Assembly (NCBI GenBank): GCA_963755515.1
Contig: CAVWKA010000002.1
Span: forward strand, 10,765-74,764
Reading direction: 5' to 3'
Length of the DNA: 64,000 nt
Origin: an uncultured Verrucomicrobiae bacterium
GTDB taxonomy: Bacteria > Verrucomicrobiota > Verrucomicrobiia > Limisphaerales > UBA11358
Shown: one piece after another, positions 40,164 to 64,000 of the stretch
Numbering within the stretch: position 1 is the first letter of the stretch
Layout: every line of letters starts with the position of its first letter
The notes under the pieces: generated by a model
What the model was told of the DNA's origin: nothing
Seen by the model: only the letters and a program-made list of their open reading frames with translations
Database searches by the model: none
Program-made: the position numbers and the translations under genes

Positions 40164-40745
40164 TTGCGTTATAGTGTGGCCGTGAGCGATATCACCGTGG
40201 TTCTTGAGCGGGCGGAGAAGGGGGACCCAAAGGCCGCCGGCGAATTGTTGCCGCTGGTTTACGATGAGCTGCGCCGGTTGGCCGCACATCGGCTGGCCGG
40301 GGAACCGAACCAGCACACCTTGCAGCCGACGGCGCTGGTCCACGAAGCCTGGCTCAAGATTTCCAACGACGAGAAACGCAATTGGAATGGGCGGCAACAT
40401 TTCTTTGCCGCCGCGGCCGAGTCAATGCGCCACATTCTGGTGGACCGCGCGCGGCGCCGGCTGGCGGCGAAACGGGGCGCCGGCGAAACGCCGCTCGATG
40501 CGGATGATTTCGACCTTCCCGCGCCCGCGCCGGACGATCAGTTGCTGATGGTGAACGACGCGGTGGAGAAATTCGGCGCCGTGGACGCGCGCAAGGCCGA
40601 ACTGGTCAAGCTGCGTTACTTCGTGGGCATGTCGTTTGAAGAAGTGGCCGAAGCGTTGGGCATTGCGGTGCCGACTGCGAAACAGTGGTGGGCCTATGCG
40701 CGGGCGTGGCTGCGGGTGGAGATGGGCGGGCGAATCGAAACGTAG
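40164..40745 (+). CDS. ECF sigma factor of the kinase-associated type (ECF43-like, Sigma70_ECF family)
   Basis: ITVVLERAEKGDPKAAGELLPLVYDELRRLAAHRLAGEPNQHTLQPTALVHEAWLKI and the C-terminal KAELVKLRYFVGMSFEEVAEALGIAVPTAKQWWAYARAWL are characteristic. The start may be GTG 40182 rather than TTG 40164. Confidence 0.85.
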   Translation: MRYSVAVSDITVVLERAEKGDPKAAGELLPLVYDELRRLAAHRLAGEPNQHTLQPTALVHEAWLKISNDEKRNWNGRQHFFAAAAESMRHILVDRARRRLAAKRGAGETPLDADDFDLPAPAPDDQLLMVNDAVEKFGAVDARKAELVKLRYFVGMSFEEVAEALGIAVPTAKQWWAYARAWLRVEMGGRIET

Positions 40746-40896
40746 CGGCGGGCCTCCGGGCCTGCCGTAGAGGGCGGCATCCTGCCGCCTGGAAAAACCG
40801 TCCACATTTCGTGAGTGACCCTATTTTGAATGGCTTTCCCGACAACCACGTTTTTTCCGCCGGGCTGGAAGCCCCGGCTCCACGTCAGCCAAGATG

Positions 40897-41177
40897 GCTA
40901 ACAGCCGGTTAAAAAACCATAGACACCGCCGCTGAGAGGATTTTTGGTTTTGAGCGCGGAGCGACGAAGGAGGCTAGCCGTAGCGCTCTGTGACCGAGGA
41001 GCGACCAAGCGCAAAACCAAAAAGGCCTCAGCCCGAAGGGATTCATCGAAAACCGGGCGGCGACTTCGTTGCTCCCCAGTCGAAGATCCACAAGGGATAT
41101 TCTCCTTCGTCGCGCCTCATCGGCGCCCGGTTTTGGATGAAACGGCGGTATCCATAGTTTTTTAACGGGCTGCTAAC
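40897..41177. mobile_element. MITE-like 281-bp element with approximately 35-bp terminal inverted repeats and nested internal hairpins
   Basis: Left end GCTAACAGCCGGTTAAAAAACCATAGACACCGCCG versus right end CGGCGGTATCCATAGTTTTTTAACGGGCTGCTAAC (29/35 complementary). Internal pairs: TTTTTGGTTTTGAGCGC/GCGCAAAACCAAAAA, TCATCGAAAACCGGGCG/CGCCCGGTTTTGGATGA and GGAGCGACGAAGGAG/CTCCTTCGTCGCGCC. No coding capacity. Confidence 0.5.
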
Positions 41178-41211
41178 GCGACATCATCGGGCGGCGTGAG
41201 TTGTGGCCGGG

Positions 41212-41430
41212 CTACGCCTGTTTTCCTTTCGGCACGTGCGTATCCCAGGTGCGTCCCGATTCCGGCTGGACCTGGGTGAAGCCCATGCCGGGCGGCGGAT
41301 TGGGAATTCGGATGAGATGCTGGCAGGCCGGGCATTGAATCTGCCGCCCGCCGAACCGGGCTTCGCACTGCAACGGCTGGTCGCAGTGCGGACAATAAAA
41401 CTTGAATTCAGTTGTGTTCATACGATTCAT
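41212..41430 (-). CDS. small zinc-ribbon protein
   Basis: About 72 aa from ATG 41430 (alternative 41421): FYCPHCDQPLQCEARFGGRQIQCPACQHLIRIP, a CxxC..CxxC ribbon with a Pro-rich tail. Confidence 0.55.
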   Translation of the reverse strand: MNRMNTTEFKFYCPHCDQPLQCEARFGGRQIQCPACQHLIRIPNPPPGMGFTQVQPESGRTWDTHVPKGKQA

Positions 41431-41523
41431 CAGATTCCATACTCTCAAGCGTAATCCGGGGGCAAAAGGGATGTCGAATTTTTTCAGATACTTTTTGCCG
41501 GCCAATTGCGCTTAATCATTTGG

Positions 41524-45549: not shown

Positions 45550-48500
45550 ATGAATCAGAACCGTGAAGAGCTTTTATTTGGCCTGGCACTGACAAAATCT
45601 GCCAGCCAGCGGCTTGAGTTTCTCGACCGCGAATGCGGCGAAGACAGGGCGTTGCGCACCCGCCTCGAAGCCCTGCTCGCGGCGCATGAGCAAACCGAAG
45701 GCGTGCTGGCCGAACCCGCGCCGGCGGCCAAGGCGACGATGAAGATCGAATTTGCCGATGTTCCCGACGAAGCCGTCGGCCAGAAGATCGGGCGTTACAA
45801 GATGCTGGAGAAAATCGGCGAAGGCGGCTGCGGCGTGGTCTATGTGGCCGAGCAGACGGAGCCGGTCCGCCGCCGCGTGGCGCTCAAGGTCATCAAGCTG
45901 GGCATGGACACCAAGCAGGTCGTCGCCCGGTTCGAGGCCGAGCGGCAGGCGCTGGCGATGATGGACCATCCCAACATCGCCAAGGTGCTCGATGCCGGCG
46001 CGACGGAAACGGGCCGGCCTTACTTCGTCATGGAACTGGTGCGCGGCATCCGCATCACCGATTACTGCGACCAGAACAATCTGTCCACCAGGGAACGGCT
46101 GGATCTGTTCATCCAGGTCTGCCAGGCCATCCAGCACGCGCACCAGAAGGGCATCATCCACCGCGACATCAAGCCGTCGAACATCCTGGTGACGCTGCAC
46201 GACGGCGTGCCGGTGCCCAAGGTGATTGATTTCGGCATCGCCAAGGCGACCGCAGGCGCGGCTGACCGACAAGACGGTTTACACGCAGTTGCAGCAGTTC
46301 ATCGGCACGCCGGCCTACATGAGTCCGGAACAGGCGGAGATGAGCGGGCTGGACATTGATACGCGCAGCGACATTTACAGCCTGGGCGTGCTGCTTTACG
46401 AATTGCTGACGGGCAGCACGCCGTTCGATGCGCAAGGAACTGATGTCGCAGGGCATTGACGCGATGCGGCAAGACCATCCGGGAGAAGGAGCCGGTGCGG
46501 CCCAGCACGCAAGCTGGCGACGCTCAAGGGCGAGGAGCTGACGACCACGGCCAAGCGCCGTTCGGTCGGACACGTCGAAGCTGATGCACGCAGCTCAAGG
46601 GCGACCTGGACTGGATCGTGATGAAGTGCCTGGAGAAGGACCGCACGCGGCGTTACGAGACGGCCAACGGTCTGGCGGCGGACATCAAGCGGCATCTGAA
46701 CAACGAGCCGGTGGTCGCCCGTCCGCCGAGCACAGCTTATCGGTTTCAGAAAACCGTTTCGCCGGAACAAAGTTGGGCTTCGCCGCACGGCGGCCGTCAT
46801 TGTCGTCGCCTTGCTGCTCGGCATCATTGTCAGCACCTGGCAGGCGGTGCGCGCCACGCATCGCCAAGCGGGAAGCCGTGGCGGCGCAAGCGCGGCGAAG
46901 CAGTGCAACGACAAACAGGCTGACGCCAATGCAAAAGGAAGCTGACGCCGGCCAGACAAGGCCGAAGGCCAGCGCAGGAACTCGCCGCCCGCCAGCGCGC
47001 CTACGCCTCGGACATGAACGTCGCCATGCAGGCGCTGGCCGGAAGCAATCTCGGCCGCGCGCTGGATTTGCTGAACCGCCAGCGGCCCCAGCCGGGCCAG
47101 AAAGATTTGCGCGGCTGGGAATGGCGTTATCTCTGGCAGCAAACCCGCAGCGACGCCTTGTTCACCCTTTGCCAGGAATCCAGCGAAATCGAATCGCTGG
47201 CGGCTTCAGCCGATGGCCACTGGCTGGCGATCGGCGTGGACCACAATGGCGGGTGTTTGTGTGGGACCTGCGGACCCGGCAGGAGGTTGGCCCACCTCGC
47301 ACCGGACGAAGATGAGGTGCGCGCCGCCTTCTCACCGGCTGAATCCTCTGCTGGCCTTCACCAGCGTCAGCGTTCCGGCTTCGGGCAAGGAGCAAAACAC
47401 TTTGCGGCTCTGGAATGCCGCCACGCGACAGATGGTTGGCGAATTCCCACTGGATCGCGAGTGCGCGGGGCTGGCGTTCGCCAAGGATGGGCGGACGCTG
47501 GTGACTTCCACCGGCCGGAGGACGGCATCACTCTCTGGGCGCATGCCCGAAGGAACCAAGCTGGCCAGTTATCCATGCGACGATGAATTAGATGTTGATC
47601 CCGGGAACCGGTTTTGCCGCGACGCCGGACTTGAGTCTGGCGGCGTATATTACGGGCTGACAACGTCGCAGCAGGTTCGCGTCATGGATCTGCACGACGG
47701 CAAGGAACTTTGGAACGCGGCTGGCAGCCAAGGAATTTATCACCGCCCTGGCGTTTTCGCCGGATGGAAAAACGCTGGCGTCCGCCGCCGGATTCGGCGA
47801 GTCGGACATCCGCTTGTGGGACGTGGCCACCGGCAAGGAAATCGGGCGGCTGGAAGGCCACAAATCCTGGGTCGGCTCTTTGGTGTTCTGGCCGGATGGC
47901 AAAAAACTGGCCTCCAGCCAGCGCCGACCAGACGATTCGCATTTGGGATGTGGCCAGTCGCAAGTGCCTGGACGTGCTGCGCGGTCATCGTCAGGAGGTG
48001 TGGCGGCTGGCGTTGCTGCCGGATGACAAAACGCTGGTCAGCGGCGGCAAGGACGGCACGGTTTGCTTTTGGGACACGTCCGTCACGCATCCGCATCAGT
48101 CTCGCATCACCATGCCGGAGAAAGTGGTTGACTGGTGCTTCCCGCCGGAGAACCAATCAGTTCTCACCCTGGACCTGCAGGGCCAAGTGGCGCGAAGGTC
48201 TGGACCTGCCTTTCGACAGCAGGAACCGCTGCTGGACGTCGGCACCAATTTCATTTCCGATTCTTGGAACAATGTCTTCTCGCAGCGACGGACGCTTCCT
48301 GGCGTTCGGCTCGACCAACGGCGTCATCCAGGTTTGGGACGTATCCCGCCAGGTTCTGTGGCGTCAGTGGACGAATACAACGGGTGCTCGTAGCGCCCCT
48401 CGCATTTCTCGCAAACGGAAACAAGCTGGCAGTCTGGTCCAGGGCCGGCAATGTCGAATCACGAATGGGATCTTATAACCGGGCGGGAATTGCAATCGTG

Positions 48501-49039
48501 GCAGGCCGTTTCGGAAAGTTATCAAGAACAGATTCCATCGATCGTGACTTTCCCAGACGAAGAGCATTACGTGGCATTCGGGTTTAATGGCGCGGTCCAA
48601 TTCAAGGATGCGGCCAACGATGAGGTAATGGAAACCAACCTGGATTATCTGGAAGGCATTGCCGCGGCGGTTTCTCCCGATGGCAAACTCTTCGCCGTAG
48701 CCAGTTATTTGGGTTATGCGCGAGTGTGGGACACCGCGACCTGGCACGAGGGAGAGACGCTGCGCGGCTTTCTCAACGGCGTTAACTCGGTGGTTTTTTC
48801 ACCGGACAGCCAACGACTCGCCATCGGCGGCAGCAATCCCGACGATGCGGTGAAACTCTGGGACGTGAACAGTTGGCAGGACGTATTCACCCTGGAAGGC
48901 GCAGGCTCTCTTTTTGTGGATCTCCGCTTTTTCACCCGACGGCAACGTCATCGGCGCCCTGAGCAGTGACGGCATCTTGAACCTCTGGCGCGCGCCGTCC
49001 TGGGCGGAGATCCACGCGGCGGAGGCGCAACGACCATGA
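45550..49039 (+). pseudogene. Ser/Thr protein kinase with WD40 repeats, paralogue 2, broken by at least a dozen frameshifts
   Basis: The kinase domain is intact to about 46255 ([30 protein letters not shown]). Then [23 protein letters not shown] is in another frame, and [11 protein letters not shown] / KTIREKEPVRPST / KLATLKGEELTTTAKRRS / [21 protein letters not shown] each need a frame switch. WD40 units ([71 protein letters not shown]) are scattered over ORFs 47014.., 47213.., 47710.. and 48451... The last readable stretch SPDGNVIGALSSDGILNLWRAPSWAEIHAAEAQRP ends at stop 49037-49039. Confidence 0.8.
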
Positions 49040-49227
49040 ACCCAAATCGCGAAACTTTCCGGACCGGGAATGTGGCGACGACGCGGCCCTGTGCCAGCGG
49101 CCCGCAGCCTGCGCCGCCTCGATTTACCTCGTGACTACCATGAAAACCAAATTGCAGAACTTGACGCACACAACTGCCAATAAAGCTCTCAGCCCTTACC
49201 CTGAATCCCACCCGATGAACTCAGGGA

Positions 49228-51605: not shown

Positions 51606-53462
51606 ATGAATTATCGAGTGCGCCGCCGTGGCGAGGAGTTGGGAACTTTTTCCCCGGACGATTTGCGCCGTCGGCGCGAGGCGGGAGAATTTTCCGGTGA
51701 CGAATACGTTCAGGCGGAAGGCATGAACGACTGGCAGCCGTTGGATTTGGTTTTGCGACAAGGTTATGTCAGGCCGCCGCCATTGCCGGGAGGCGTTGCC
51801 AACCGCAGCGCCGGCCCAAATCCGGTTTTGGTTTGGACGTTGATTGTTTTCGGCGCGGTTGTTTTTGTGGTGATCATTGCGGCATTTGTGCGCGGGATTC
51901 AACGCGCTGTCACCGTTGCGCAGGAAACGCAAACGCGTTATTTGAATATGGCGCGGCCGGACGCATTAGCCGCGGCGACGAAACCGGTTGTTTGGACGAC
52001 AAACACGTTGACGGAAGCGGACGCACAGAAACGCGCGCGCGAATTCAGAATAAGGCAATGGGTTGACGGTTACCAAAAGCGCGGCGAACGCAATCCGGAA
52101 TGCGACGCGGAAATCGTGACATTTCTCCAAACGTGGATCGCGCGCAATTACGGGGGCGCGGCGGCAACCAATACCCTGGTGCTATCGGCGGAAGCCGACA
52201 AGCTGGCAAGAGACACAAATTGCACGGACCCGCTGGCGCTGACGGCCATCGCGGGTGAAACGCAGAACCGCGCCGAAGCCATCCGCTGTTTGCAAAGGGC
52301 GCTGGACGCCTTTCCAAAATCAAAGCACGAAGCGTATCCGAAATTTTACGCGGACGTCATCTCCGCGCTGGATTCGTCGGCGCTTCGGCAATTCGCCGCA
52401 TGTTTTTCCGACGGCAGCTTCGCCCCGGTTGATCAACAGGAAATTGGGGAAATTTTTGTCAACGGCTGGGGTGATCGTTTTTTTGAACGCAACGGTGACG
52501 CGGTTTGCAAAATTGCGAATGAAGCCGGCACCAATTTCCAATGGCTCGCCCTCACGCTCGAAGGCGAAAATGAAATCAACCTGGCATGGGCCGCGCGCGG
52601 CAGGGGTGGCGCTGACGCGGTGACTTCAAGCGGCTGGAAAGGATTCCGCGACCATTTGGCCGCGGCACGGAGCGATTTGACCGAGGCATGGAATTTGCGG
52701 AGGAATTATCCGCTGGCGCCGAGATTGATGATAACCGTCGCGCTCGGCGATTCGGGGATCACGGAAATGCGCCAATGGTTTGACCGGACAACGATCGCGC
52801 AAATTGATTATCCCGGCGCATGGGCGGAAATGCGTTGGGGATTGCGCCCGCGTTGGTATGGCAATTTGGACGCGATGCTCGCCTTCGGGCGGACCGCCGT
52901 CGCCACGCGGCGGTTTGACACCGACGTGCCGCGGAAATTCATTGACAGCGTTTATGACGTGGAAGCGGAGATGAATCTGCCGCGCGGCCATTACCTTTTT
53001 GGCCGGGCCGACATTTGGCCGCAATTGCAAATCATTTATTCCGGCTATCTCAACGAACCTTCGCAAGCGCCCTATCGAAATGGCTGGCTCACGTCGTATG
53101 CCATCATTGCTTGTTACGCCGGGAAATACGATGTGTCACGAGCGCAGTTGGAAGCGCTCAACTGGAAACCGCAGCGAAGCATTCTGGCGGAATGGAATTT
53201 GGACGCGACGCTTTGGCCTTTGGAAGTGGCAGCCCTTAGCGGGCCGCTCGGCGGTAAAGTTTCCGCCGCTGAAACGTTTTTCCAAAATGGAGATACCGCC
53301 GCCGCGTTAAAGAGATACAAGGAATTAAATTCAAACCCTGATGCCGACGGGCGGACGAAGGAATTTATTCGGCGGCGGCTGGCATTGTTGAATGCAGAGC
53401 AGGGGATGCTTCCGCAGCAAGATCGAACAATGGCCATTCCGATGCCGTCGGTCACCAATTAA
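51606..53462 (+). CDS. GYF_2 (DUF4339) domain membrane protein, otherwise uncharacterised
   Basis: N-terminus YRVRRRGEELGTFSPDDLRRRREAGEFSGDEYVQAEGMNDWQPLDLVL is GYF-like. One TM (VLVWTLIVFGAVVFVVIIAAFV), followed by a helical domain of about 500 aa. Confidence 0.7.
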   Translation: MNYRVRRRGEELGTFSPDDLRRRREAGEFSGDEYVQAEGMNDWQPLDLVLRQGYVRPPPLPGGVANRSAGPNPVLVWTLIVFGAVVFVVIIAAFVRGIQRAVTVAQETQTRYLNMARPDALAAATKPVVWTTNTLTEADAQKRAREFRIRQWVDGYQKRGERNPECDAEIVTFLQTWIARNYGGAAATNTLVLSAEADKLARDTNCTDPLALTAIAGETQNRAEAIRCLQRALDAFPKSKHEAYPKFYADVISALDSSALRQFAACFSDGSFAPVDQQEIGEIFVNGWGDRFFERNGDAVCKIANEAGTNFQWLALTLEGENEINLAWAARGRGGADAVTSSGWKGFRDHLAAARSDLTEAWNLRRNYPLAPRLMITVALGDSGITEMRQWFDRTTIAQIDYPGAWAEMRWGLRPRWYGNLDAMLAFGRTAVATRRFDTDVPRKFIDSVYDVEAEMNLPRGHYLFGRADIWPQLQIIYSGYLNEPSQAPYRNGWLTSYAIIACYAGKYDVSRAQLEALNWKPQRSILAEWNLDATLWPLEVAALSGPLGGKVSAAETFFQNGDTAAALKRYKELNSNPDADGRTKEFIRRRLALLNAEQGMLPQQDRTMAIPMPSVTN

Positions 53463-54249
53463 GCGGGGACCGTCTTTTTGAGCGCACTTTCCACGGCGGT
53501 GCGGTAAATAACGTCCACGACGTTCCGAAGATATTGTTCGTCGGCGACGCCGTCGGTGGCTTCCGGCGGGAAATCCACTTTGGCGCGGAAATGCCGGCCA
53601 GGTCACCGAACAATTCCACGCGCGCCACCGGGTCAAATTCTCGCGTCGCAACAGCGCCTGCAAAGCGATGTCCGCTTCCGCCGGTGAAACATTCTGCCGC
53701 AGGCGCGCGACGAGGTGCGGAAATTGCCGGAGCGAATTGTATTTGCCGGCGAGCAATTGGTCCAGATCCGGCTCGGAGATCTGCGGGGTGCGGATGACAA
53801 CGGTGTTGGCGGCGATGTCGCCCAGGCGCTGGCATTTTGAGTTGAGCCAGCAGGTCAGGCCGCCGACAAAATAAAACAGCCGGCAATGCATCCACGAACC
53901 GCAGCAGGTTGCGCACGACGATTTGGTTGAATTGCAGCCGCATTCCTTCCGCGTCCACCACGCGCAGGCGGAACAGCCTCTTGCCGATGGTCTGGCCGCG
54001 CCAGCTCCATTCAAAAAAAATCCCGTAGCCGATGCCGACGACAAACCAGCCGATGACCAAAAAGCGCAGGGCAAATTCAAAGCTGAGCACTTCGAGCAGA
54101 CTGCATGAGCGATTCCCAGAACCATCAGGCAAGACCAGGATGCAAAGCTGGTCAATGAACCACGCGAAAAACCGGGTCACCGGCCCGGCCAGCAATTGCG
54201 AAAACACGATGCCTTCCGGCGTACGGATGAACAGGGTGCTGGTTTTCAT
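53459..54249 (-). pseudogene. RDD-family membrane protein, frameshifted at least 3 times
   Basis: FIRTPEGIVFSQLLAGPVTRFFAWFIDQ...WRGQTIGKRLFRLRVVDAEGMRLQFNQIVVRNLLRFVDALP in one frame; GGLTCWLNSKCQRLGDIAANTVVIRTPQISEPDLDQLLAGKYNSLRQFPHLVARLRQNVSPAEADIALQALLRRE in a second; HFRAKVDFPPEATDGVADEQYLRNVVDVIYRTAVESALKKTVPA in a third. Confidence 0.6.
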
Positions 54250-55297
54250 TTACAGGCCGGTGCGGACCGGTTTTGGTTTTCAAAGGCGCGCGGCTTTGTG
54301 CCCGCCGCCTTTGATTTTCCCGATTTTGACAGAAACAGAGACAGCAGAATCAGTTCAACGGCGCCAAAGGCGATTTTGGCCTCGTAGGGAATGACCGGTT
54401 CGTGATATTGCGAGAGAAATGCTTCGATAAATCCCGCCCAGACCAGCAGCACGCCGACGCCAAAAATCAGCGTGACGACGTCGCCCGAAATTTCGCGCAA
54501 CCGCGCTTCGCAGCGGGGCGCGGCTGCCCCGGCCGATCAGCGCCAGCGCCAGCATCAAGCCGGCCTGGCCGGCGATGAGAATGGCCGGGATTTCGATCAC
54601 GCCGTGCGGCATCAGCCAGCCGAGCAGAAATTTTGTTTGCCCGGCGCGGATGTAATCCACCGCCACCGCGCCGAGAATCACGCCGTTGTAAAACAGCATG
54701 AGGATCGTGCCGAAGCCCCACGTCATTCCGAGCGCCAGGGTGAAGATGGAAACCTTGGTGTTATGCGTCATCAATTCCGCCGAGAAAGTGGTTTTGTACC
54801 CTGCCAGCCGGTCATTCGTGGCTTTTTCCTCCTCGGCCACGCGTTTGGCCGGGTCTTGCAGCAAATGGGAGAACGGCATCAGCACCGGCTTTGGCGTCCG
54901 GGTCAAAGGCAATGGCCAGCCCGCCGAAGGCGCAGCCCGCCAGGGTGATGGCCAGCGAAAAATAAAAGGCCCGGACATGCCGGCGAAACGTTTGCGGCAG
55001 CGTCTGGAAAAACCATTGCAGCGGGAAAAAACGTCGCTGTTTTTCGCGCGTCTCGTGAATTTCGCCATAGGCGCGGGCGACCAGATTTTCCAGATAGCGC
55101 CGCGTTTCCGGTTCGGAGGAAAGGTCGTGATTTTTGCCAGGTCGGCGGCGGTGCGCTCGTAAAGATGATGGAACAGCTGCAATTGCGGCAGTGTCATCCG
55201 CCAGTCCGGCTCGCGCTTCCATCCGGTCGAGCAATTTCTCCAGCTCGGTCCAGAACGGCCGCTCGCCGGCGATGAAACGTTGCAGATCAACAATCAC
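54246..55297 (-). pseudogene. SpoIIM-like (DUF95) membrane protein, frameshifted at least 4 times
   Basis: MIVDLQRFIAGERPFWTELEKLLDRME / MTLPQLQLFHHLYERTAADLAKITTF / SSEPETRRYLENLVARAYGEIH...AFDPDAK / PVLMPFSHLLQD...MTHNTKVSIFTLALGMTWGFGTILMLFYNGVILGAVAVDY...LMPHGVIEIPAILIAGQAG / REISGDVVTLIFGVGVLLVWAGFIEAF alternate between two frames. Confidence 0.6.
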
Positions 55298-56637
55298 AAC
55301 AATTGCCTTTGTTTCACGTTCAGGTATTGCGAGACCAGTTCGGCGCTCAAACGTTCGTTGCCGAGCAGCGAAAATTGCACGCCGCGCCGCTGCAAGATCT
55401 TTTGCAACTCGCGCAATTTCTGCCAGCGCAAATGGCCGCCGAGTCGCCGATACAAATCATCCATGCCCGCCACGTCCGGATCTGGCAAAGAGCGGCTTCA
55501 CGCCCGGCGGTTGCATCATGTTACCAGACCAAATGCTGGCGGCGGATCAATTCCATATTGCGGACGAAATTTTCCGCCATGGCCGGGATCGTCCAGCGCC
55601 GTCAGAAAAACCAGCAGCGCGCGGCGGCGCAGCCGCAGCCGGATGAAGGCGCACAGTTCGTCAAAATCCGGCGTGACGATTTTCGGCTCGAGCGTGTAAA
55701 GCGCGTCGCGGCAGGCGTTGTAATGCGCCTTGCCGTTTTTTGCGCGCACGAATTTTTCCACTTTGTCGGTGAATGTCAGCAGTCCGAACAAGTCCCCCTG
55801 CCGTTCCGCCGCCAGCCCCAGCACCAGCGCGGCGGTGACGAAACGTTCCAGCGTGGAATTCGCTTTCGCATATTTTCATTTGATTGTGCGCGCGCTCAAG
55901 CGCGACGCATCCACGATCACGTAAACCTCCTGGGTTTTTTCGATTTGAAAGACTTTCGTGATGGGTTTGCCGCGCCGCGCGGTGGCTTTCCAATGGATTT
56001 CGTCATAGCCGTCGCCGGGAACGTATTCGCGCAGTTTTTCAAAATCGCGGCCCTTGCCGACCTGCCGTTGCGCGTGCAAGCCAAAAGCGCCGCGATTCAG
56101 AAACAGCGCCGCAAGATTTTTTCGTTCGTTGAGCAAGTTGGGATAAACGCGGATTTCCGATTGCGCCGGAAAGGTTTTGCGCGCCGCCCAAAATCCGAGC
56201 GGCGAACGGCTTTCAATATAGGCCGAATCGAGTTTGTAATTGCCGCGTTTGAGCGGCGTGCACGGCCAGGCCAGCCGCGACCATTCGCTGTGCGCGGGCA
56301 GCAGCGCGTCCAATTCTTCGGTTTCGGTCATGATTTCGCGCGGCCAGGCCAGCGCCACGCGCAGATTTTTTTTGCATGCTGGCGTTCGGTTGCGGATGCG
56401 CAATTCCAATTTTGCCTCGCGGTCTTTCGACATGCGGGCGACCGGCGGAAGTTCGAGGCCGATGCCCGCCAGACTTTTTCGGGCGCCGATGGCATCGGCC
56501 ATCGCCACCAACAACAGTCCGCCAATGAAGCAACAGCGATACACCGATGGCAGTTGGCGCGACCGCGCCATGAGCAATGCGAACGGCAGAACGATCGCCG
56601 CCACCCAAAACAACAATCTGTAGCGCGGAACAATCAT
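55294..56637 (-). pseudogene. DUF58 protein (MoxR partner), frameshifted at least 3 times
   Basis: ORF 55876..56637 carries GRDFEKLREYVPGDGYDEIHWKATARRGKPITKVFQIEKTQEVYVIVDASR (DUF58 core). The continuation lies in ORF 55516..55824 (MLGLAAERQGDLFGLLTFTDKV) and ORF 55294..55488 (..DDLYRRLGGHLRWQKLRELQKIL..). Confidence 0.7.
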
Positions 56638-57595
56638 CGCGGCACGGCGATTTGCTGGAGAATTTGCTGGATGACTTCGGCCACGGTCAGTCCTTCGATT
56701 TCAAATTCCGGCCGCAGAATCAAACGATGTTCCAGCACCGGCGGCGCCATCATTCTTGATGTCGTCCGGCGTGACGAAATCGCGGCCGGAAATCGCGGCA
56801 TAGGCGCGCGCCGCCATGATCAGCGATTGCGTGGCGCGCGGGCCGGCGCCGACCAGGATGCTTTCGTGCTGGCGCGTGGCGCGGACGATGTCCACGAGAT
56901 AGGCGATCAGTTCATCGCGCATGACGATGGCCGCCAGCTCTTCACGCAGCGACGACCAAATCTTCCGGCTTGATGACCGGCTGCACGGCACCCTGGCGAG
57001 CAGTGTTTCCGGCGCGTCCTTGGTCATCGTGCGCTGCGCGAGCGACAAGTTCCTCGGCGCGGTCGGGCGCGGCCATGGTGATTTTGAGCATGAACCGGTC
57101 TTTCTGCGCTTCGGGCAGCGGATAGGTGCCTTCGTATTCAATCGGATTTTGCGTGGCGAACACGGTGAAATTCGGCGGCAGCGGATGGGTGTCGCGGTCA
57201 ATCGTCACCACGCGTTCCTGCATCGCCTGCAGCAGCGCCGACTGGGTCTTGGCCGGCGCGCGGTTGATTTCGTCGGCCAGCAGGAACGAGGTGAAGACCG
57301 GGCCTTTGATGAGCGAGAATTCGTTGCGCTGCAGGTTGAAAACATTCGTGCCGGTGATGTCGGCGGGCATGAGGTCGGGCGTGAACTGGATGCGGGCGAA
57401 ATCGGCGCCGAGCACGCGGGCGAGCGTGCGCACGAGCAGGGTTTTGGCGACGCCGGGCACGCCTTCGATGAGCGCGTGGTTGCCGGTGAAAATGGCGATG
57501 AGCGCCTTTTCGATGACGTCGTGCTGGCCGATGATGACTTTGCCGGTTTCGTGCCGCGCCTGCGCGAGGACTTCCTTGAGTCTTTCAGTGTTCAT
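56634..57595 (-). pseudogene. MoxR-family AAA+ ATPase, C-terminal third frameshifted at least 3 times
   Basis: Intact N-terminal two thirds ([15 protein letters not shown] Walker [50 protein letters not shown]). Then [19 protein letters not shown] / [13 protein letters not shown] / EELAAIVMRDELIAYLVDIVRATRQH...FVTPDDIK / MMAPPVLEHRLILRPEFEIEGLTVAEVIQQILQQIAVPR lie in different frames. ATGA overlap with the DUF58 start. Confidence 0.8.
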
Positions 57596-57607
57596 AATTT
57601 TTGTGAT

Positions 57608-58853
57608 TCATGGGGTTCCCAATGCATCGGCAGATTTTTTTATAAGTTGCGATGGGATTGCGGTCCTTGGGCGGCAGGGAATTTTCCGCTGAGAAACGGC
57701 CTCGGCCTGCTGCAGCCTGCGTCGAGGAGCTATTTCCGCCTGCGCCGACCGTTTTTTTCCATTCGGCAAAACAGGCTGCGCAGCAAGTCGCGCGGCGCGA
57801 TGCTGCGGCGGAGCAGATTGACAAAGCCAGCGGCGGAATCTTTGCCGGCCACAAAATCCTGCCGTTTTTTCATCGGCGCGCGGCGGCACGAGGCTGGTGG
57901 CATTTTTCCAGATGAACAAGTCCGGCCAGCAAGCAGCAATCCGGCGGCCAGCCCGTGCAACCGATATTTGCGCATCAACGTCGCGACGCCGGCTTGTTTC
58001 GACGATGCCAAAATGCGCCTCGTCAAAAACCACGTTTTTGTTCGAGCCCGACGAGCCACGCCAGCAAATCCGCATGGCGGTCCCTGGCCATGGCTTCATT
58101 GCTGACGAAATAAGAATCAGTGGCCAAGACGACCGAGCCATTGCCAAATTGTCGTTCGATGACGACGGCGTTGGTGCCGCGCGCATAAATCGCGCGCCAG
58201 GCGCTGTCGCAATTGGTGAAAACAATGCCGCTGTGCCAATCCAGGGTTTTCGGCAGGGTCAAATCGGTTTTGTTGACGACATTGACCGGCGCGTAGGTGT
58301 CGCCGTTTTGCTCCAGCTTTTCGAAGCCGGGATGAAACCCCCATTCGTCTTCCAGCGAGACCCAATCTTCCTCGTCGTCAGAAATTCCGCTTTTTTTCAA
58401 TGGCTTTGGCGGTGTCATTTTTTCATTTTTCGATCTGGCAGACGCCACATCATTGGTGTCGCCTTCATCGCTGTAATCAAAATCGTATCCCTCGGTTTGG
58501 GGAAAGAAAGTAATGACGAGCCGGTTGCCACGGGCGAGGAAATTTTGGATTTCCTTAAATGAATCCGGGGAGAGCCAGTCGAATTCATACGGCGAACCGG
58601 CCAGATGCAAATAAACCGTTTGCGCCTCTTCGGGCAAACGGTTGTCGGCGCTAAAATCGCGGGACGCCGAAACGCCGGGAATTTTTTCAAGGCTCTCATA
58701 AAGCGCCATGGTGCCGAGCGGATCGGCCCGAAGCGAAGAATAGGGCGGGTAAACGTCGCCATGCTCGAAGCGCAATTCAAAAAGCTCGGTGATGCCGAGC
58801 CCAAAAACGGCCGCGCAGCCGAGCAAGATGAAAATGGGAAGATAGTTTTTCAT
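57608..58853 (-). pseudogene. DUF4350-like protein; N-terminal approximately 270 aa intact, C-terminal part frameshifted (from about 58050 downward)
   Basis: Start at ATG 58853 (MKNYLPIFILLGCAAVFG), with an ATGA overlap with the upstream gene. ..ADLLAWLVG is followed in another frame by NKNVVFDEAHFGIVETS, then GVATLMRKYRLHGLAAGLLLAG in a third. The exact 3' end is uncertain. Confidence 0.6.
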
Positions 58854-60502
58854 CCGCCGGCCTTGATTCTTTCGACGTTCGCGGAAAATTGGTTCACCAA
58901 ATCTCGATTCACCTCGTGCATGCCATACCAAATGCGCTCCAAGATGGAAATGTTGTCGCCGAAAATTGAAAGCAGATTTGGAAAGGCGTGCGCGCGCCGG
59001 CGCAGCTCGCGCTCGTAATCACGATTCGATTTAAAACGGGCAATGCGGATGAGATTCCTTGCCGCCAGATGGGACAAGCTGGCGAGATAAAAGGCGCGCA
59101 TCGCCAGGCGAAATTCGCCGCGATCGAGAAGCTCGCGCGCCAGTTGGGTCCAGCCGTCCTCCGGCATTTGGTCGGCGCCGACATTTTCATCCAAAATATC
59201 CGGCGTGGAAAAGATGGCTTGGGCCGGGACGGCGGCCGGGGATTTTCCACGGTTGCGCCAGACGCGAAAAAGAAAAGCGGCCAGGGCGGCGACCACGACG
59301 GCCAACAACCCGTAAAGCAAAATTTCCACGGACTCAATCCATCCGTAGCCGGAGGAATCGGCGGAAGTCGAAATCACCGGTTGCCTGGGGAAAAGTTTGC
59401 GAAGCAATTCATCAAGCCAATGCGACACATCGCGCGCCCATTGGCGAAGCGTTTGACCAATCGCGTCGAAGAATTCCCCGAAAATGCCCTCCTGCGAATC
59501 CGGCCCGACAATTTTTTCGCGCGGCATCCGCCAAACGTATTTTCGCTCGTGGATGGTTTGGTTGATCGCCTTGTCCAAATCGGCGGGCGAAATTTTTTGG
59601 CCGGCCGGCGTCGTCGCGGTTGATTTTGGGCTGTCCCCCCTCGCCGGCGACGCCAGGAAAAGGGCGAGGGAAATTAAAATAGCGGCGGCAATTTTTTGCG
59701 AAATGGCGAATGGTTTCAGTTCCGCTTTCAAATCTTCGCCGGATTGCAACGATTCACCGTAAAAGCAGCGCAGGACGAAAATGGTTTTCAAAATCGGGTC
59801 CACGCACAGATAGGTCAGACCCAGCATGGCGGCGAAAAAGGTGGAATTGAGAAGCGCCGACGGGCTTTTGCTGAAAGCCGATTCAATGCCAAAAAGCATT
59901 TTGAACAGATCGGGCAGGACCAGACAAACGGTTGTCCAGTTCAAGAAAACGTAAAAGCCAAAGCCGAGCATGATGGCGAGAGTGACATTATTTTGTGTCG
60001 GCCAGAGCGCCGCCTGCCTCCAGGATTTATTGAGAAATTTTGAAAGACCCCCACCGTCGCCGGCGCCCAGCGCGGTCGCATTTTGAAAAAACGCGTAAAC
60101 CCAGGCAAAAGGCAGCAGCGGAAGAAGTGACAGCGGAATTAAAAACAGGCCGAGCGGCTGTAAAATGGATTGGGTAAAGCAAATTTTCGCGGCGTCGCGA
60201 AAATTCATCGGCGGAATATTTTCCGCGGCGATTTGCGCGCGGAGACGCCGGGCAAAGAGGGTCTGGCAGAATTTCATCCAGAAAAATAAAACGGCGATGC
60301 CGAAGCTGGCATTGGACAGATGCAGGCAGGCAAACGGGCTGCGGCTCATCCCGGCCCAGAAAAACAGCAAACCGAGAACGAATGGAACGGCACCGAGATA
60401 ATAAGCAGCCAGCGCGGCGGGTGGCGCGGTGCGGAGCAAATGCACGGCCTCCTCGATGAGGTCGAAGGCCGGCTTGCCTAGCTGACGGCGCGCGCGTTTC
60501 AT
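58850..60502 (-). CDS. polytopic membrane protein with C-terminal DUF4129-like domain
   Basis: 550 aa with multiple TM helices. C-terminus LARELLDRGEFRLAMRAFYLASLSHLAARNLIRIARFKSNRDYERELRRR fits the DUF4129 pattern. Confidence 0.7.
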   Translation of the reverse strand: MKRARRQLGKPAFDLIEEAVHLLRTAPPAALAAYYLGAVPFVLGLLFFWAGMSRSPFACLHLSNASFGIAVLFFWMKFCQTLFARRLRAQIAAENIPPMNFRDAAKICFTQSILQPLGLFLIPLSLLPLLPFAWVYAFFQNATALGAGDGGGLSKFLNKSWRQAALWPTQNNVTLAIMLGFGFYVFLNWTTVCLVLPDLFKMLFGIESAFSKSPSALLNSTFFAAMLGLTYLCVDPILKTIFVLRCFYGESLQSGEDLKAELKPFAISQKIAAAILISLALFLASPARGDSPKSTATTPAGQKISPADLDKAINQTIHERKYVWRMPREKIVGPDSQEGIFGEFFDAIGQTLRQWARDVSHWLDELLRKLFPRQPVISTSADSSGYGWIESVEILLYGLLAVVVAALAAFLFRVWRNRGKSPAAVPAQAIFSTPDILDENVGADQMPEDGWTQLARELLDRGEFRLAMRAFYLASLSHLAARNLIRIARFKSNRDYERELRRRAHAFPNLLSIFGDNISILERIWYGMHEVNRDLVNQFSANVERIKAGG

Positions 60503-60825
60503 TGCTGGTCAATCCAATGAACCTGCCAAAGGGCGCCTTCATGAAACGAATCCGGCAATTTCAGCAAGCCTTGGCCGATGAGAAAGAAGAAAAACCAGGC
60601 GACGAAGATCCCGAAAACCAGTTGCGCCAGCCGGAAAAGCCACGCCAGAGAAAGCCGCGGCGACAACGGCTGGCGGGCCAATTTTTTGAGACAAGCGGAA
60701 CAGACGACGCGGTCGTCGTGTTCGGTGACGCATTCGCGGCAAAAGAACTGTTTGCATACCGGGCAGCGCGCCACGGCTTCGCGACCGGCGTGGTTAAAAC
60801 AACGTTGTTGGGAGAGAGTTTGCAT
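60499..60825 (-). CDS. B-box-like zinc-finger membrane protein
   Basis: 108 aa from ATG 60825: CFNHAGREAVARCPVCKQFFCRECVTEHDDRVVCSACL, then one TM (LAQLVFGIFVAWFFFFLIG). Its stop overlaps the next start (ATGA). Confidence 0.6.
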   Translation of the reverse strand: MQTLSQQRCFNHAGREAVARCPVCKQFFCRECVTEHDDRVVCSACLKKLARQPLSPRLSLAWLFRLAQLVFGIFVAWFFFFLIGQGLLKLPDSFHEGALWQVHWIDQQ

Positions 60826-60826
60826 T

Positions 60827-61444
60827 TCAGGAAACCAGGCGGGGCGGGACGTTTGGTTTATCGGCGGCAGTATTTTGCGCCGGGGCGCCAGCCGAAGCCG
60901 CCAGGTTCTGCATCCAGGCCGACGCCACGTCCGGTGACAATTGGCCGCCTTGCGCGGCGGCGATGAGCGGGCGGATATTCTGCAAGACCTTGCGTGCGCG
61001 GCGGACGCGGCAAAGCGACGGCAACTCTTCGGTTTGAACGGCGGTGCGGACACCGGTTTTGCAGGTGGCCCCGCAGAACAGATTGGCCAACAGCAGAAGC
61101 ACGCAAAGGCCGAGGACGACCGCCAGAACAATTCCACCGGCGATTTCACCGCTGCTCCAAAGGGATGGCGAAGTTTTCGGCAGGGTTGCCAAAGAGAGAG
61201 CGAAAAAGGAGAGAAAAATGAAAGCGGCAATTCCGTTCAACCATTGATACCGCATCGTTTGCTGGATCGTCACGGCCTGGATGTCACGGAAATAAAATCG
61301 TTTGTAAGTTTCGCTGTAACCGGCGGACTCGACGCAGAGCAAATGGTCATCACCGAGCCAGAGGCTGGAACGCGACATGAAGGCGATGGCGAACAGGCTC
61401 CGCGCGCGCGCGCGGGTCAACCGTTTATATTTTATTTCAGCCAT
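60827..61444 (-). CDS. hypothetical membrane protein
   Basis: 205 aa with two TM helices (IAAFIFLSFFALSLATL, GGIVLAVVLGLCVLLLLANLF). Its stop lies 1 nt before the next start. No recognisable family. Confidence 0.55.
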   Translation of the reverse strand: MAEIKYKRLTRARARSLFAIAFMSRSSLWLGDDHLLCVESAGYSETYKRFYFRDIQAVTIQQTMRYQWLNGIAAFIFLSFFALSLATLPKTSPSLWSSGEIAGGIVLAVVLGLCVLLLLANLFCGATCKTGVRTAVQTEELPSLCRVRRARKVLQNIRPLIAAAQGGQLSPDVASAWMQNLAASAGAPAQNTAADKPNVPPRLVS

Positions 61445-61445
61445 A

Positions 61446-62018
61446 TCATCGTCGGGCGATGGTCACAAAAAGAATTGTCCAGCCGGCGATTTGCAGCGTC
61501 GCCAGAATCATCGCGACGACGAATCGGGTTTTTGTCCGGCGCAAAATGCCTTGCGGTGCCTTCCAATAACGGATGGCGACGAACAGCGACATCGGCGCCG
61601 TGACCAGCGTAAAATAAAAAATCAGCAGCGGATAAATCGCCAGAGCCAGCGCGATGTCGTCGTAGAGCGTGCGCTCATTATCCAGCGTTTTGATTTTGCC
61701 TTTGGCTTTGCCGATTTCGAGACAGGCCGGACAGAGGTGCTGGCCGCGCAAATCGCAATCGCAAAGCGCGCAGAGAAATCGCCCGCAGGCTTCGCAAGGC
61801 ACGACGGCTTTTTTTTTCGGATGATAAAAGCAGCTGGATTCACCTTCAATCATGACGGCTTCCGCATTTTGTCCGGCGCCGATTTTGCGGAACAAGGCGG
61901 GAAAAACTTCGACTTGGAGCGGGAGGCCGCAGGCCGGGCACGGCCTTAATTCGGGCTGATTGAAAATTTCGCCCAGCAGCCATGCGCGGCACGTCGGACA
62001 TTGAAGCGGCAAATTCAT
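61446..62018 (-). CDS. zinc-ribbon/B-box membrane protein
   Basis: 190 aa: CPTCRAW..CPACG, CFYHPKKKAVVPCEACGRFLCALCDCDLRGQHLCPACL, then two TM helices. Confidence 0.6.
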   Translation of the reverse strand: MNLPLQCPTCRAWLLGEIFNQPELRPCPACGLPLQVEVFPALFRKIGAGQNAEAVMIEGESSCFYHPKKKAVVPCEACGRFLCALCDCDLRGQHLCPACLEIGKAKGKIKTLDNERTLYDDIALALAIYPLLIFYFTLVTAPMSLFVAIRYWKAPQGILRRTKTRFVVAMILATLQIAGWTILFVTIARR

Positions 62019-62758
62019 CTATAAACGACACGAGTGTTGCAAATACGGTCGTGCAAGGCGCGTTTTTCCGGATTGTCGAAGCAGGCCATGATATAACCGA
62101 TCATGCATGTCAACGAACTCAATATCTTCGAAAAATATCTTGCGAAAGCGCGTCCGTAGGACACGCGGGCGCCGTCAGCGGTGACGACTTTTATATTGCA
62201 GGCCATTTTCCCGAGCGTTGCGCCGTATTTGCCGACCATAAGGCCTTCGTAAGAGAGAGCGATGGCCATTTCGAAAGTGAAGACCACCAATTGCAGTGAG
62301 ATCAATGCCGCCGGCGCCACGTGTGAACGAGCACTTCCCGCAATGATCAATCCGAAAATCATTCCGATGCCCATGTTGGTGGCGCCCAAAATCAAACCAT
62401 CCAAAAGAACCGCGGCGAACCGGGTCAAAATACGGGCGTATCGCAATTCCCCGGGGTTAATTTGCGCGCCCTCGGCAAGTTTTTGCATGAAAACCGGTTT
62501 GCAGCCGGCGCAGACGCGCGCATTGCCGTAGCGGATAGTTTCATCAATTGGAAAAATTTTTCCGCACTCGATGCAAACGGCTTCGGGGGCCGCTTCCCCC
62601 GGCGACGCGGCGACTTCGCGATACGGCTGCCAGTGGGTCATGCCTTCGCGCCAGACCAAAGTGTCCGGTTGAATTTTTCCGGCGCGAACCAGCTCTGCGA
62701 GTTGTTCGTCGGTCACCGGGCCGGTTTCCTTCCCTTGGTCAGCGTAATGCCAGTTCAT
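62015..62758 (-). CDS. GYF_2 + zinc-ribbon + RDD-domain membrane protein
   Basis: Start trimmed to ATG 62758: MNWHYADQGKETGPVTDEQLAELVRAGKIQPDTLVWREGMTHWQPYREV (GYF_2), CIECG..CAGCK, and an RDD domain (RFAAVLLDGLILG ... GATLGKMACNIKVVTADGARVSYGRAFARYF ... ALHDRICNTRVV). Confidence 0.8.
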   Translation of the reverse strand: MNWHYADQGKETGPVTDEQLAELVRAGKIQPDTLVWREGMTHWQPYREVAASPGEAAPEAVCIECGKIFPIDETIRYGNARVCAGCKPVFMQKLAEGAQINPGELRYARILTRFAAVLLDGLILGATNMGIGMIFGLIIAGSARSHVAPAALISLQLVVFTFEMAIALSYEGLMVGKYGATLGKMACNIKVVTADGARVSYGRAFARYFSKILSSLTCMIGYIMACFDNPEKRALHDRICNTRVVYR

Positions 62759-63053
62759 ATTTAGATCGAAATTTCCGCCGAATTTTACCTGCAAAATGCC
62801 ACAACCCGGACAGTGATGGCAAAATTATTTTTGGGATTCATAGCGCGGCCACTCACCGTTTTTCGGGATTTTCAATTGTTTTTCGGGGTGCCAAGGGCAT
62901 GGGCAACGAAGCGCCGCGCCCGTGCCAGGGAAAACTGGGGGCGTACTGAAAGAAGCACACTGGAAAAAAGACTTGCAAACTTGTGGAGCAGGAAGAAAAT
63001 CACGAAAAGGCCCCACGCGGGTCGTGGGCAGGAAACCAAATGGGAAATATCAG

Positions 63054-63242
63054 GTGAAAAGGAAACTATTATTGGCGGGGTTGATGTTTTTTTTAGTCGC
63101 CGGTTTAAAGGCCCAATCTACCTGGGGGAGTCCATTCGACGCCGACGGAAATGACCGAGTGTCATTGGACACCTATTTCGCCGCAGTCTGGAACGTGAAT
63201 GGCACGCCGATAGACTTGCTGGCGGTGGGAACCGGAAGTTAA
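63054..63242 (+). CDS. possible small secreted protein
   Basis: A GTG start would give VKRKLLLAGLMFFLVAGLKAQS (signal-like) plus about 40 aa. Support is weak. Confidence 0.3.
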   Translation: MKRKLLLAGLMFFLVAGLKAQSTWGSPFDADGNDRVSLDTYFAAVWNVNGTPIDLLAVGTGS

Positions 63243-63823
63243 TGCCACTCAAACAGGAGGCCCCGTGGCCGGCCCACTGGCGATATATTCAGTGAGCGAA
63301 TTCGCTCGCGGATTAATTCTGGATTGGAAAGGCTTAGGTGGAATCTCGCTTTTCGCGGGTACTGTTAAAGGCCAATTTCTTCTGGACCCGCATCATGCCC
63401 CGATGCAGAGCTTTGGCCACATCCAACGAATCAATTTTTCCGACGGAACGCCGCCGCCGAACCTGGAAAAATCCCTCTGGCAAAAAGGTTGTCTGAGCCG
63501 CCTCGAATTGCAATCCCCGTTACACAATTTTTAAGGCCATATTGAGGTTAGGCCGGCAGGTATAATTATGAAGCGGGTTCAAAAGCAAGACCCAACGGGA
63601 AACTTGCGTATTTCGAGTGTTTTCAAGGGTTGATTCTGGACTTGGATTCCAAATTCGATCAAGGCTTTAAATCGCAAAAGGGCAACGCCTGAGCAAAAAA
63701 GACCTGCATCGGAATCCCCATGCCAACGGCACGATGATTGCCGTTGACGCCTTGTTCGCGAAATATATTCTGAGGTCGAAATAAATGCCCAAAGCCACTG
63801 ATCAACGGAGGGAGGCAACCATT

Positions 63824-64000
63824 ATGGACGATCTGCCGTTCAGCCTCGTGCGGGCGGCCATCGGGTTTCACCGGCTGAATGAATGCGTCCTGCGGCAGAT
63901 GGGTTTGAGGGCACAACCGCTCGGGCCGGCACGGTGCTGCACGCGTTGTTTGAGCAGAACGATTGCACGGTGAAAGACCTGGCCAATCGGACGCAAATCC
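63824..64000 (+). CDS. MarR-family regulator, N-terminal part (runs off the window); probable frame change near 63925-63935
   Basis: MDDLPFSLVRAAIGFHRLNECVLRQMGL is in one frame and GTVLHALFEQNDCTVKDLANRTQI (MarR wing/helix region) is in the next. Confidence 0.45.

Follow-up and report, generated by a model that had tools for sequence, protein, structure and literature searches.

Within the 64,000-nt window, the whole stretch of DNA analysed here, an intact DUF4129-like gene on the minus strand is followed downstream, in the same operon, by five genes that are split into many short ORFs in differing frames (Table 1). The gene order, DUF4129-DUF4350-MoxR-DUF58-SpoIIM-RDD, is syntenic in the Verrucomicrobiota MAGs L002, L003 and L027. 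The N-terminal fragment of the MoxR protein matches the AAA_3 domain (PF07726; E = 5e-63, Pfam), and the AAA_lid_2 domain (PF17863) is found by Pfam in two frames, which cover model residues 1-43 and 44-74, respectively. After correction of the frames, the protein is 93-94% identical to its counterparts in L002 and L027. The DUF58 gene lies directly downstream of MoxR and likewise yields Pfam matches in two pieces; further fragments are assigned by Pfam to DUF4350, SpoIIM and RDD. MoxR ATPases are typically partnered with VWA-domain proteins (PMC13036017). The combination of AAA_3 and AAA_lid_2 with an adjoining DUF58 gene is shared with MoxR AAA+ operons that have a DUF58/VWA-type partner, the only difference being the broken state of the genes here. 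The module itself is an ordinary MoxR operon, and only its state in the present contig is unusual. Look-up of the frameshifted product, the exact 217-aa MoxR fragment, returned no record anywhere, and neither Rfam nor a tRNA scan gave a match anywhere in the window.

Table 1. Genes of the MoxR operon, its flanks and the divergent patch (positions in the window).
Feature	Coordinates	Strand	Remarks
Divergent patch (haplotype B)	53528..58227		Delimited by the outermost excess differences from conspecific contigs
Convergent gene, 618 aa, weak GYF_2 match (flank)	51606..53462	+	Intact; protein identical to that of Logan contig L032
RDD-family gene	53459..54249	-	5 switches: 54135/54132, 54110, 53883/53880, 53642, 53598/53595; final 67 nt ahead of the stop native again; conspecific copies intact, 262 aa
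SpoIIM-like membrane protein gene	54246..55297	-	4 switches: 55216, 55119, 54901/54889, 54510/54507 (L027 guide; 5 with L002); conspecific copies intact, 351 aa
DUF58 gene	55297..56637	-	7-9 switches: 56571, 56530, [56391, 56378], 55890, 55874/55865, 55590, 55523, 55486; conspecific copies intact, 444 aa
MoxR-type AAA+ ATPase gene (AAA_3 + AAA_lid_2)	56637..57595	-	Wholly in patch; 4 switches at ~57052, 56994, 56956, 56757
DUF4350 gene	57597..58853	-	7-8 switches between 58052 and 57697; 58853 to ~58228 native and clean, remainder in patch; conspecific copies intact, 416 aa
DUF4129-like gene, upstream, same operon (flank)	58850..60502	-	Intact, 0 switches; DNA 99.7-99.9% identical to conspecific contigs

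Frame switches were counted by protein-to-DNA alignment permitting frameshifts, with either the intact L002 orthologues or the L027 conspecific proteins as guides. Such a dedicated alignment was needed because tblastn alone understates the damage: single HSPs cross the DUF4350 and DUF58 genes, since paired shifts restore the frame. Between positions 53595 and 58052, the five genes contain 28-30 switches, namely, 30 with the L002 guide (DUF4350, 7; MoxR, 4; DUF58, 9; SpoIIM, 5; RDD, 5) and 28 with the L027 guide (8, 4, 7, 4 and 5 in the same order). Followed in the direction of the minus-strand operon, the first switch lies at ~58043-58052 and the last at ~53595-53598. The protein stays readable across each switch and continues seamlessly in the new frame, none of the 1543 corrected codons is a stop, and the start and stop positions of the corrected genes are all syntenic. 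Applied as a control to the DUF4129 gene next to the block, the same procedure gave 0 switches, and in the genes of L027 and L003, both relatives, it gave 0-2 each. All switches fall within 53528-58227 and none in the 10.9 kb of referenced flanks; under random placement over the 15.6 kb for which conspecific references are available, confinement of 28 switches to 4.7 kb by chance has P ~3e-15. The original prediction of a dense-frameshift block that starts mid-gene and extends over five operon genes is borne out, its coordinates being right within ~100 nt, and the neighbouring genes on both sides are intact, as had been stated. The accompanying count of at least 15 switches is an undercount.

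The window was compared with seven conspecific contigs (L024, L027, L028, L029, L032, L033 and L034) from five other samples or assemblies, L024 and L032 being contigs of Logan, a public sequencing-run assembly. Their identity to the window is 99.6-99.9% to either side of the block and 88-92% within 53528-58227, and one or both borders of the patch are covered by five of them (L024, L027, L032, L033 and L034). The patch sequence is absent from all seven contigs. Block genes that are fully contained in the conspecific contigs (DUF4350, DUF58, SpoIIM and RDD) are all intact, the exception being MoxR in L027; within the block, L027, L028 and L029 are mutually 100% identical. Compared with L027, the patch shows 36 inserted nt, 17 deleted nt and 441 substitutions in 4.7 kb (9.4%), whereas the flanks differ from conspecific contigs by only 0.1-0.4%, which contradicts the earlier claim of little substitution alongside many indels; compared with L033, substitutions reach 11.5%. 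The frameshifts are concentrated within sharp limits, at the place where the ancestry of the sequence changes. The sharp block boundaries perceived originally are borne out.

Judged by their distribution over codons, the substitutions in the patch represent natural, selected divergence, neither errors nor decay. Third positions account for 306 of the 535 codon-aligned differences (57%; P ~1e-29 versus one third). In 270 codons the difference is purely synonymous, and 165 amino acids differ. GC3 in the patch is 0.741, compared to 0.652 in haplotype A, the population's own, and 0.642 in the genes that flank the patch in the window. The outgroup state, that of L002 and L003, is found in the window at 229 nt and 69 aa sites versus 146 nt and 47 aa sites in haplotype A, and the block is closer to L002 and L003 than haplotype A is. 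Because the window thus shares outgroup states that were lost in haplotype A, the block is of other ancestry, beyond mere poor polishing. The sequence comparison therefore points to a segment whose ancestry differs from that of its flanks and which derives from a GC-richer relative at ~88% identity. Third-position divergence is even along the patch, with no stronger clumping than natural pairs of orthologues show, so that a single continuous donor lineage suffices; a mosaic of haplotypes A and B within the patch was rejected (dispersion ratio of 1.8 versus 1.75-1.91 in natural pairs), and the longest stretch of identity, at 33 codons, is no longer than expected. A protein search for the donor lineage B with the corrected DUF58 returned nothing above 87% identity, the best match being the conspecific A copy and the next ones reaching 83-85%. 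Haplotype B is therefore only a putative population of its own in the source sample. Substitutions alone would not tell the patch apart from a genuine recombinant strain with haplotype B. With 146 sites against 229 for haplotype A, the branch specific to the window is significantly the shorter of the two, contrary to a simple sister-lineage model; convergence of GC3 with L003 may be responsible, or a consensus drawn from multiple relatives.

The indels comprise 22 insertion and 6 deletion events, all of 1-2 nt and none larger, and their spacing is Poisson-like (mean of 154 nt, CV of 0.97). Bacterial pseudogenes are deletion-biased (PMC6054270, PMC2817411), with an insertion:deletion ratio of 0.76-0.94 and a mean deletion size well above 2 nt (PMC6054270); relative to the published ratio, the excess of insertions in the block has P = 1.4e-4. 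Among the inserted bases, 25 of 36 are unlike both neighbours and only 1 lies in a run of at least 3. The homopolymer context to which the original prediction had drawn attention shows no enrichment over random insertion, and classical homopolymer-length error is ruled out by the inserted bases being mostly singletons. The insertion-biased, non-homopolymer spectrum differs from the residual error classically seen in polished Nanopore assemblies. At 16 of 19 sites of +1 shift, the 4-mer consists of the haplotype A codon plus a synonymous third base, which is no more than expected by chance; a model in which both alleles were kept in the consensus was rejected, given that random insertions passed through the same aligner produce the pattern 79% of the time (P = 0.41). 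As the window-specific branch is shorter than that of A, it leaves no room for the at least 150 neutral substitutions that should accompany 28 real indels. Overall, the indels do not look biological in kind.

The same window contains another block with the same signature, in a kinase-WD40 gene at ~45.5-48.5 kb, where frame switches are also dominated by +1 shifts and GC3 is raised, as in the MoxR block. This block was characterized with distant guides only, the contigs L030 and L031 ending at 40.4 kb, and a search for a conspecific reference with the ORF at 47213-48478 returned only distant WD40 matches.

The explanation that we favour, with a probability of roughly 0.75, is that the MoxR block is a chimeric or alternative-haplotype patch with a low-quality consensus in a long-read metagenome contig, that is, an artefact of assembly and consensus calling. 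Positions 53528-58227 of the window would carry haplotype B, from a GC-richer related population, in place of the contig's own haplotype A. Haplotype B would have entered either as a minor alternative path or by a chimeric join through the MoxR operon, which is conserved and syntenic. The B stretch would be supported by few reads, or would be left unmapped by the polishing reads, so that its consensus would retain ~28 random indels of 1-2 nt, roughly one per 150-170 nt, which break five otherwise well-conserved genes. We infer that low coverage or failed polishing is behind the indels and that the join was produced by the assembler, not by the cell. The size of the source contig (346,085 bp; NCBI/ENA) and the few 1-nt deletions outside the block relative to Logan contig L024, several of them in short homopolymers, are consistent with a long-read assembly. 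The artefact favoured here agrees with the original reading of a consensus-quality problem as opposed to old pseudogenes, but the premise of that reading, that the organism's own sequence had been damaged, fails on the foreign ancestry of the patch.

Parts of this explanation have precedents. Long-read errors fragment genes (PMC12007338, PMC8812927), and the usual residual ones are homopolymer-length errors (PMC8812927). The block is similar to the long-read indel errors addressed by Kastor (PMC12007338) and Polypolish (PMC8812927) in that the indels are of 1-2 nt and leave the protein readable across frames, and in that such errors persist where polishing fails to reach and are gone in independent, more accurate assemblies. 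By contrast, the indels in the block avoid homopolymers, are insertion-biased and are confined to a stretch of foreign ancestry. Merging of divergent alleles also yields spurious indels and frameshifts, some of the frameshifts being put down to neighbouring allelic variants that led to misaligned reads and INDEL errors (PMC8445201). In the collapsed Trypanosoma brucei Lister 427 assembly (PMC8445201), as would hold for the block, apparent frameshifts arise when divergent alleles are treated as one locus, and they disappear after haplotype separation; however, the block comes from a prokaryotic metagenome, has ~12% divergence and shows no A/B mosaic.

An alternative is that the patch is real and the indels are not. 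Under this scenario, ~4.7 kb would have been gained from a GC-richer congener by homeologous recombination, and the frameshifts would be consensus errors that survived because polishing reads, or the reads of the majority haplotype A, failed to map onto the 12%-divergent tract. In favour of such an event are a tract on the kilobase scale with sharp bounds, flanks 99.7-99.9% identical to those of conspecifics, uniform and natural-looking synonymous divergence inside, foreign codon usage as seen in GC3, and a second GC3-rich patch 5 kb away that was possibly co-transferred. Unlike homeologous recombination tracts, however, the block contains ~28 frameshifts, none of the five samples, with their 7 conspecific contigs, shows the tract, and no donor emerged from the DUF58 protein search. 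Recombination across ~12% divergence is rare, and the poor consensus would need a cause of its own; a chimeric path of low coverage, by contrast, accounts for both features. We therefore regard a genuine recombinant tract as unlikely, although it deserves more consideration than the possibilities discussed below.

It is very unlikely that both the patch and its indels are real, with an imported or native divergent copy of the operon freshly inactivated by ~28 small indels and the MoxR module reduced to new pseudogenes; this is, in essence, the very recent inactivation of the whole module that was raised originally as an alternative, and both the indel spectrum and the selection pattern speak against it. 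The frames are broken in all five genes and, as in pseudogenes formed by neutral decay in bacteria, consecutive genes carry several frameshifts each. The corrected genes, by contrast, are free of nonsense codons and retain the codon-position pattern of purifying selection. The window branch, shorter than that of A, admits a few dozen neutral substitutions at most, which puts the indel:substitution ratio near 1, compared to roughly 1:10 in bacterial mutation spectra from mutation-accumulation work. The excess of insertions, the lack of any event above 2 nt, the position of the indels outside homopolymers and the recurrence of the same signature in a second, unrelated gene nearby are equally at odds with decay. 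Still more improbable is a contig that is correct throughout, in which 53.5-58.2 kb and ~45.5-48.5 kb would have been replaced, in a single transfer of several fragments, by DNA of one and the same GC-richer congener, with error-prone, insertion-prone copying or repair leaving approximately one small indel per 150 nt and silencing the MoxR module. A block of the organism's own sequence that had suffered nothing but errors of sequencing or consensus calling, or that had undergone local hypermutation in situ, could account for dense indels in proteins that are still recognizable, but the probability of this is close to nil. The 9-12% substitutions relative to conspecifics are mostly third-position and synonymous, the outgroup state could not have been restored at 229 nt and 69 aa sites from an A-type template, and random damage should have moved the block away from L002 and L003, to which it is nearer than A; these observations already refute errors in the organism's own sequence as the sole cause. 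There is scarcely any more chance that the switches are decoded, the proteins being restored by programmed ribosomal frameshifting, transcript editing or another form of recoding. Although the seamless continuation of the protein after each switch is what recoding would require, the reading frame runs on without a break at all 28 sites in conspecifics as well as in relatives further removed, the sequence contexts are heterogeneous and non-repetitive, with no common motif, homopolymer or slippery context, and the switches occur in both directions, by 1 or 2 nt. We know of no system that decodes ~28 such sites in five genes.

When set against the population's short-read contigs, the block revealed both problems, the foreign ancestry and the poor consensus, without recourse to the reads. 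The lesson is that dense frameshifts in part of a long-read MAG can be the sign of a stretch from another population, beyond merely unpolished sequence. The value of the finding is methodological; the block holds no new biology. Taken at face value, five genes belonging to a conserved MoxR module would be annotated as pseudogenes, and that conclusion would be wrong; it would be equally wrong to read the 4.7-kb tract as evidence of recent horizontal exchange or accelerated evolution in this Verrucomicrobiota MAG.

On the minus strand between 53.4 and 58.9 kb, the window contains numerous short overlapping ORFs in differing frames, flanked on both sides by long intact genes. Pfam searches with the ORF pieces matched DUF4350, AAA_3 and AAA_lid_2 (MoxR), DUF58, SpoIIM and RDD, with AAA_lid_2 of MoxR divided between two frames and DUF58 matched as two pieces; the match of the intact upstream gene to DUF4129 was weak and sub-threshold. 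Using the DUF4129 protein as a query, we located Verrucomicrobiota MAGs with a syntenic operon, in which the gene order DUF4129-DUF4350-MoxR-DUF58-SpoIIM-RDD-convergent gene is unbroken. In one of these, L002, the products from DUF4129 to RDD comprise 547, 416, 319, 444, 350 and 267 aa. The genes beneath the block are an ordinary MoxR-DUF58 module. Upstream of DUF4129 lie small operon genes encoding a 108-aa product, two proteins of 205 and 190 aa that contain Cys-rich motifs, and a GYF_2 + RDD protein, in an order conserved in L002, in L003 (a second distant MAG contig) and in the conspecific contigs L024 and L034; the module is thus bracketed on its other side by a second RDD-family gene.

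Because paired shifts restore the frame, single tblastn HSPs cover some of the broken genes; for the count, we built an aligner that matches protein to DNA and tolerates frameshifts. When the L002 orthologues served as the guide, it required 30 frame switches from 58052 to 53595 (DUF4350, 7; MoxR, 4; DUF58, 9; SpoIIM, 5; RDD, 5), with no stop codons in the corrected frames of the five genes and corrected identities to L002 of 70%, 94%, 81%, 86% and 76%, respectively. With proteins of the conspecific contig L027 as the guide, 28 switches were found (+1, 19; +2, 3; −1, 5; −2, 1). The same aligner found none in the flanking DUF4129 gene and 0–2 in each control gene of L027 and L003. The dense frameshifting described in the original prediction is therefore confirmed, although its count of at least 15 was too low.

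A search with the DUF4129 protein recovered a near-identical protein, and exact look-ups then yielded contigs from other samples that belong to the same population (see the table), including Logan assemblies of public sequencing runs. Beyond block 2, the window is 99.6–99.9% identical to these contigs; L033 and L034, for example, show 3 and 5 differences over 2300 and 4776 nt, respectively. Within the block, identity drops sharply to 88–92%: relative to L027, the window has 441 substitutions, 36 additional nt and 17 missing nt, and the comparison with L033 gives 415 differences over 3606 nt. Both borders are crossed by contigs that have the conspecific version, hereafter haplotype A, on either side; its sequence is identical in L027, L028 and L029, and DUF4350 (416 aa), DUF58 (444), SpoIIM (351) and RDD (262) are unbroken in the conspecific contigs. 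The abrupt drop and the border-spanning contigs indicate that the block is also a tract of different sequence, an ancestry that could not be seen from the window alone. L027 has defects of its own: its MoxR gene carries one frameshift, at residue ~38, and an excess of 34 nt divides a 618-aa gene into 377 and 258 aa; the extra nt are absent from the Logan contigs L032 and L033 and from the window, so that L027, too, must count as error-prone and of long-read style.

To compare the tract with haplotype A, we used 1543 codons anchored on the L002 proteins. The 535 nucleotide differences fall on codon positions 1, 2 and 3 in the ratio 142/87/306, a third-position excess with P ~1e-29 against equal shares, and comprise 270 codons with synonymous-only and 165 with amino acid differences. 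Polarised against the outgroups L002 and L003, the differences show the outgroup state in the window at 229 nucleotide and 69 amino acid sites, and in haplotype A at 146 and 47, respectively; the block is also nearer to both outgroups than A is. These shared states and this proximity refute error or hypermutation of a native A-type template, and they place the origin of the tract in a lineage, B, that had separated from A before the changes specific to A arose. The tract is richer in GC at third positions (GC3 0.741) than either haplotype A (0.652) or the genes that flank it in the window (0.642), and AT>GC substitutions outnumber GC>AT (249 versus 73). Third-position divergence is ~0.15–0.27 in each gene, with no more clustering than natural pairs of orthologues show, so that a single continuous donor lineage of ~88% identity suffices; this test gave no sign of an A/B mosaic inside the tract. 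The shorter branch of the window (146 sites, versus 229 for A) might be due to convergence in GC3 with L003 or to several relatives having contributed to the consensus.

All indels in block 2 are of 1–2 nt, with Poisson-like spacing (mean 154 nt, CV 0.97), and the switches are confined to the foreign tract (P ~3e-15). In bacterial mutation, about 10 substitutions occur for each indel; given that the window-specific branch is shorter than that of A, no more than a few dozen substitutions free of selection can have arisen alongside the 28 indels, and the 1543 corrected codons include no nonsense codon. Insertions outnumber deletions 22:6 in the L027-guided alignment, compared to ratios of 0.76–0.94, with deletions much longer on average, in curated bacterial pseudogenes (PMC6054270; P = 1.4e-4). 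Thus, block 2 does not behave as a neutrally decaying pseudogene in the respects tested, and the view that everything is real and the genes are freshly inactivated is highly improbable. Nor does it show the tested features of programmed frameshifting, and restoration of the proteins by recoding is not credible. The tract does have the shape of a recombination tract, but a real recombinant with erroneous indels appears unlikely, as the search returned no donor (the closest match to the corrected DUF58 was the A copy at 87%, followed by 83–85%, with nothing closer in the database) and none of the conspecific contigs is a second carrier.

The simplest account, to which we assign a probability of about three in four, is an assembly or consensus artefact, that is, foreign or minor-path sequence with a poor consensus. 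The size of the source contig (346,085 bp; NCBI, ENA) and the few single-base deletions relative to L024 outside the block, several in short homopolymers, both suggest a metagenome assembled from long reads. The assembler would have switched, at the MoxR operon with its conserved synteny, to reads from a rarer related population of higher GC content or, alternatively, retained a minor alternative path, and the consensus of the patch would have been built on too few or unpolishable reads. Fragmentation of genes by long-read errors is documented (PMC12007338, PMC8812927), as are spurious indels where divergent alleles are treated as one locus (PMC8445201). Block 2 showed the tested hallmarks of such an artefact except for an association with homopolymers: only 1 of the 36 inserted bases lies in a run of at least 3, and 25 differ from both neighbours. 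The error spectrum is not of the classical homopolymer type. A mixed A/B pile-up was considered because 16 of the 19 +1 sites read as an A codon plus a synonymous third base; random insertions under the same aligner give 79%, and the pattern is hence not evidence.

Coordinates and sources of the features discussed
Feature	Window position (strand)	Source or observation
Contigs L024, L033		Logan, SRR30413545
Contig L027 (11 kb)		ENA ERZ25039501
Contig L028		ERR12035941
Contigs L029, L032		ERR11593882
Contig L034		ERR11523672
Possible sigma-factor-like ORF (read from translation), then intact 732-aa Ser/Thr kinase	40128–43722 (plus)	Kinase is a paralogue (61% identical) of the broken block 1 kinase
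Block 1, kinase-WD40 gene	~45.5–49.1 kb, possibly from ~43.8 kb (plus)	~25 frame switches, mainly +1
Same Ser/Thr kinase-WD40 gene (block 1), limits in nt	45550–49066	
Switch relative to WD40 homologues P0243, P0244	48913–48919	L027 may share it; its bases differ at 48915, 48917, 48919
ORF stop	48969	Same in L027
Intact convergent gene	51606–53462 (plus)	
34 extra nt in L027	~52362	L027 6990–7023
Block 2	53528–58227	
MoxR frameshift in L027	~57480	L027 1764–2724
Intact DUF4129 gene	58850–60502 (minus)	
Small operon genes	60499–62794 (minus)	
GYF/RDD gene	62015–62794	Versus L024: 15 nt missing, in frame, GC-rich (62599); one A of AAAA missing near start (62772)
Region without long ORF	62800–64000	Indels versus L024: 63923, 63486, 63391, 63387, 63379, 63234

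Elsewhere in the window, the gaps in the GYF/RDD gene represent either strain variation or consensus error. The terminal region, ~1.1 kb without a long ORF, Rfam family or tRNA, is 99% conserved in L024 apart from six indels of one base each, several of which lie in short homopolymers. In block 1, the second stretch of dense frameshifts, GC3 is 0.73–0.86 through 48459 and 0.655 across 48460–49066, where the window is near-identical to L027; contig and protein searches yielded no conspecific reference for 40.4–48.4 kb. The switch near its end could reflect a true divergence of the C-terminus or, alternatively, a mistake shared by the two long-read contigs. The resemblance of block 1 to block 2 in signature argues for a property of the assembly rather than of one operon.

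Block 2 is most probably an artefact. The original preference for a consensus problem over old pseudogenes stands, to which the analysis adds that the tract is of foreign ancestry: the MoxR block is probably chimeric, besides being error-ridden.
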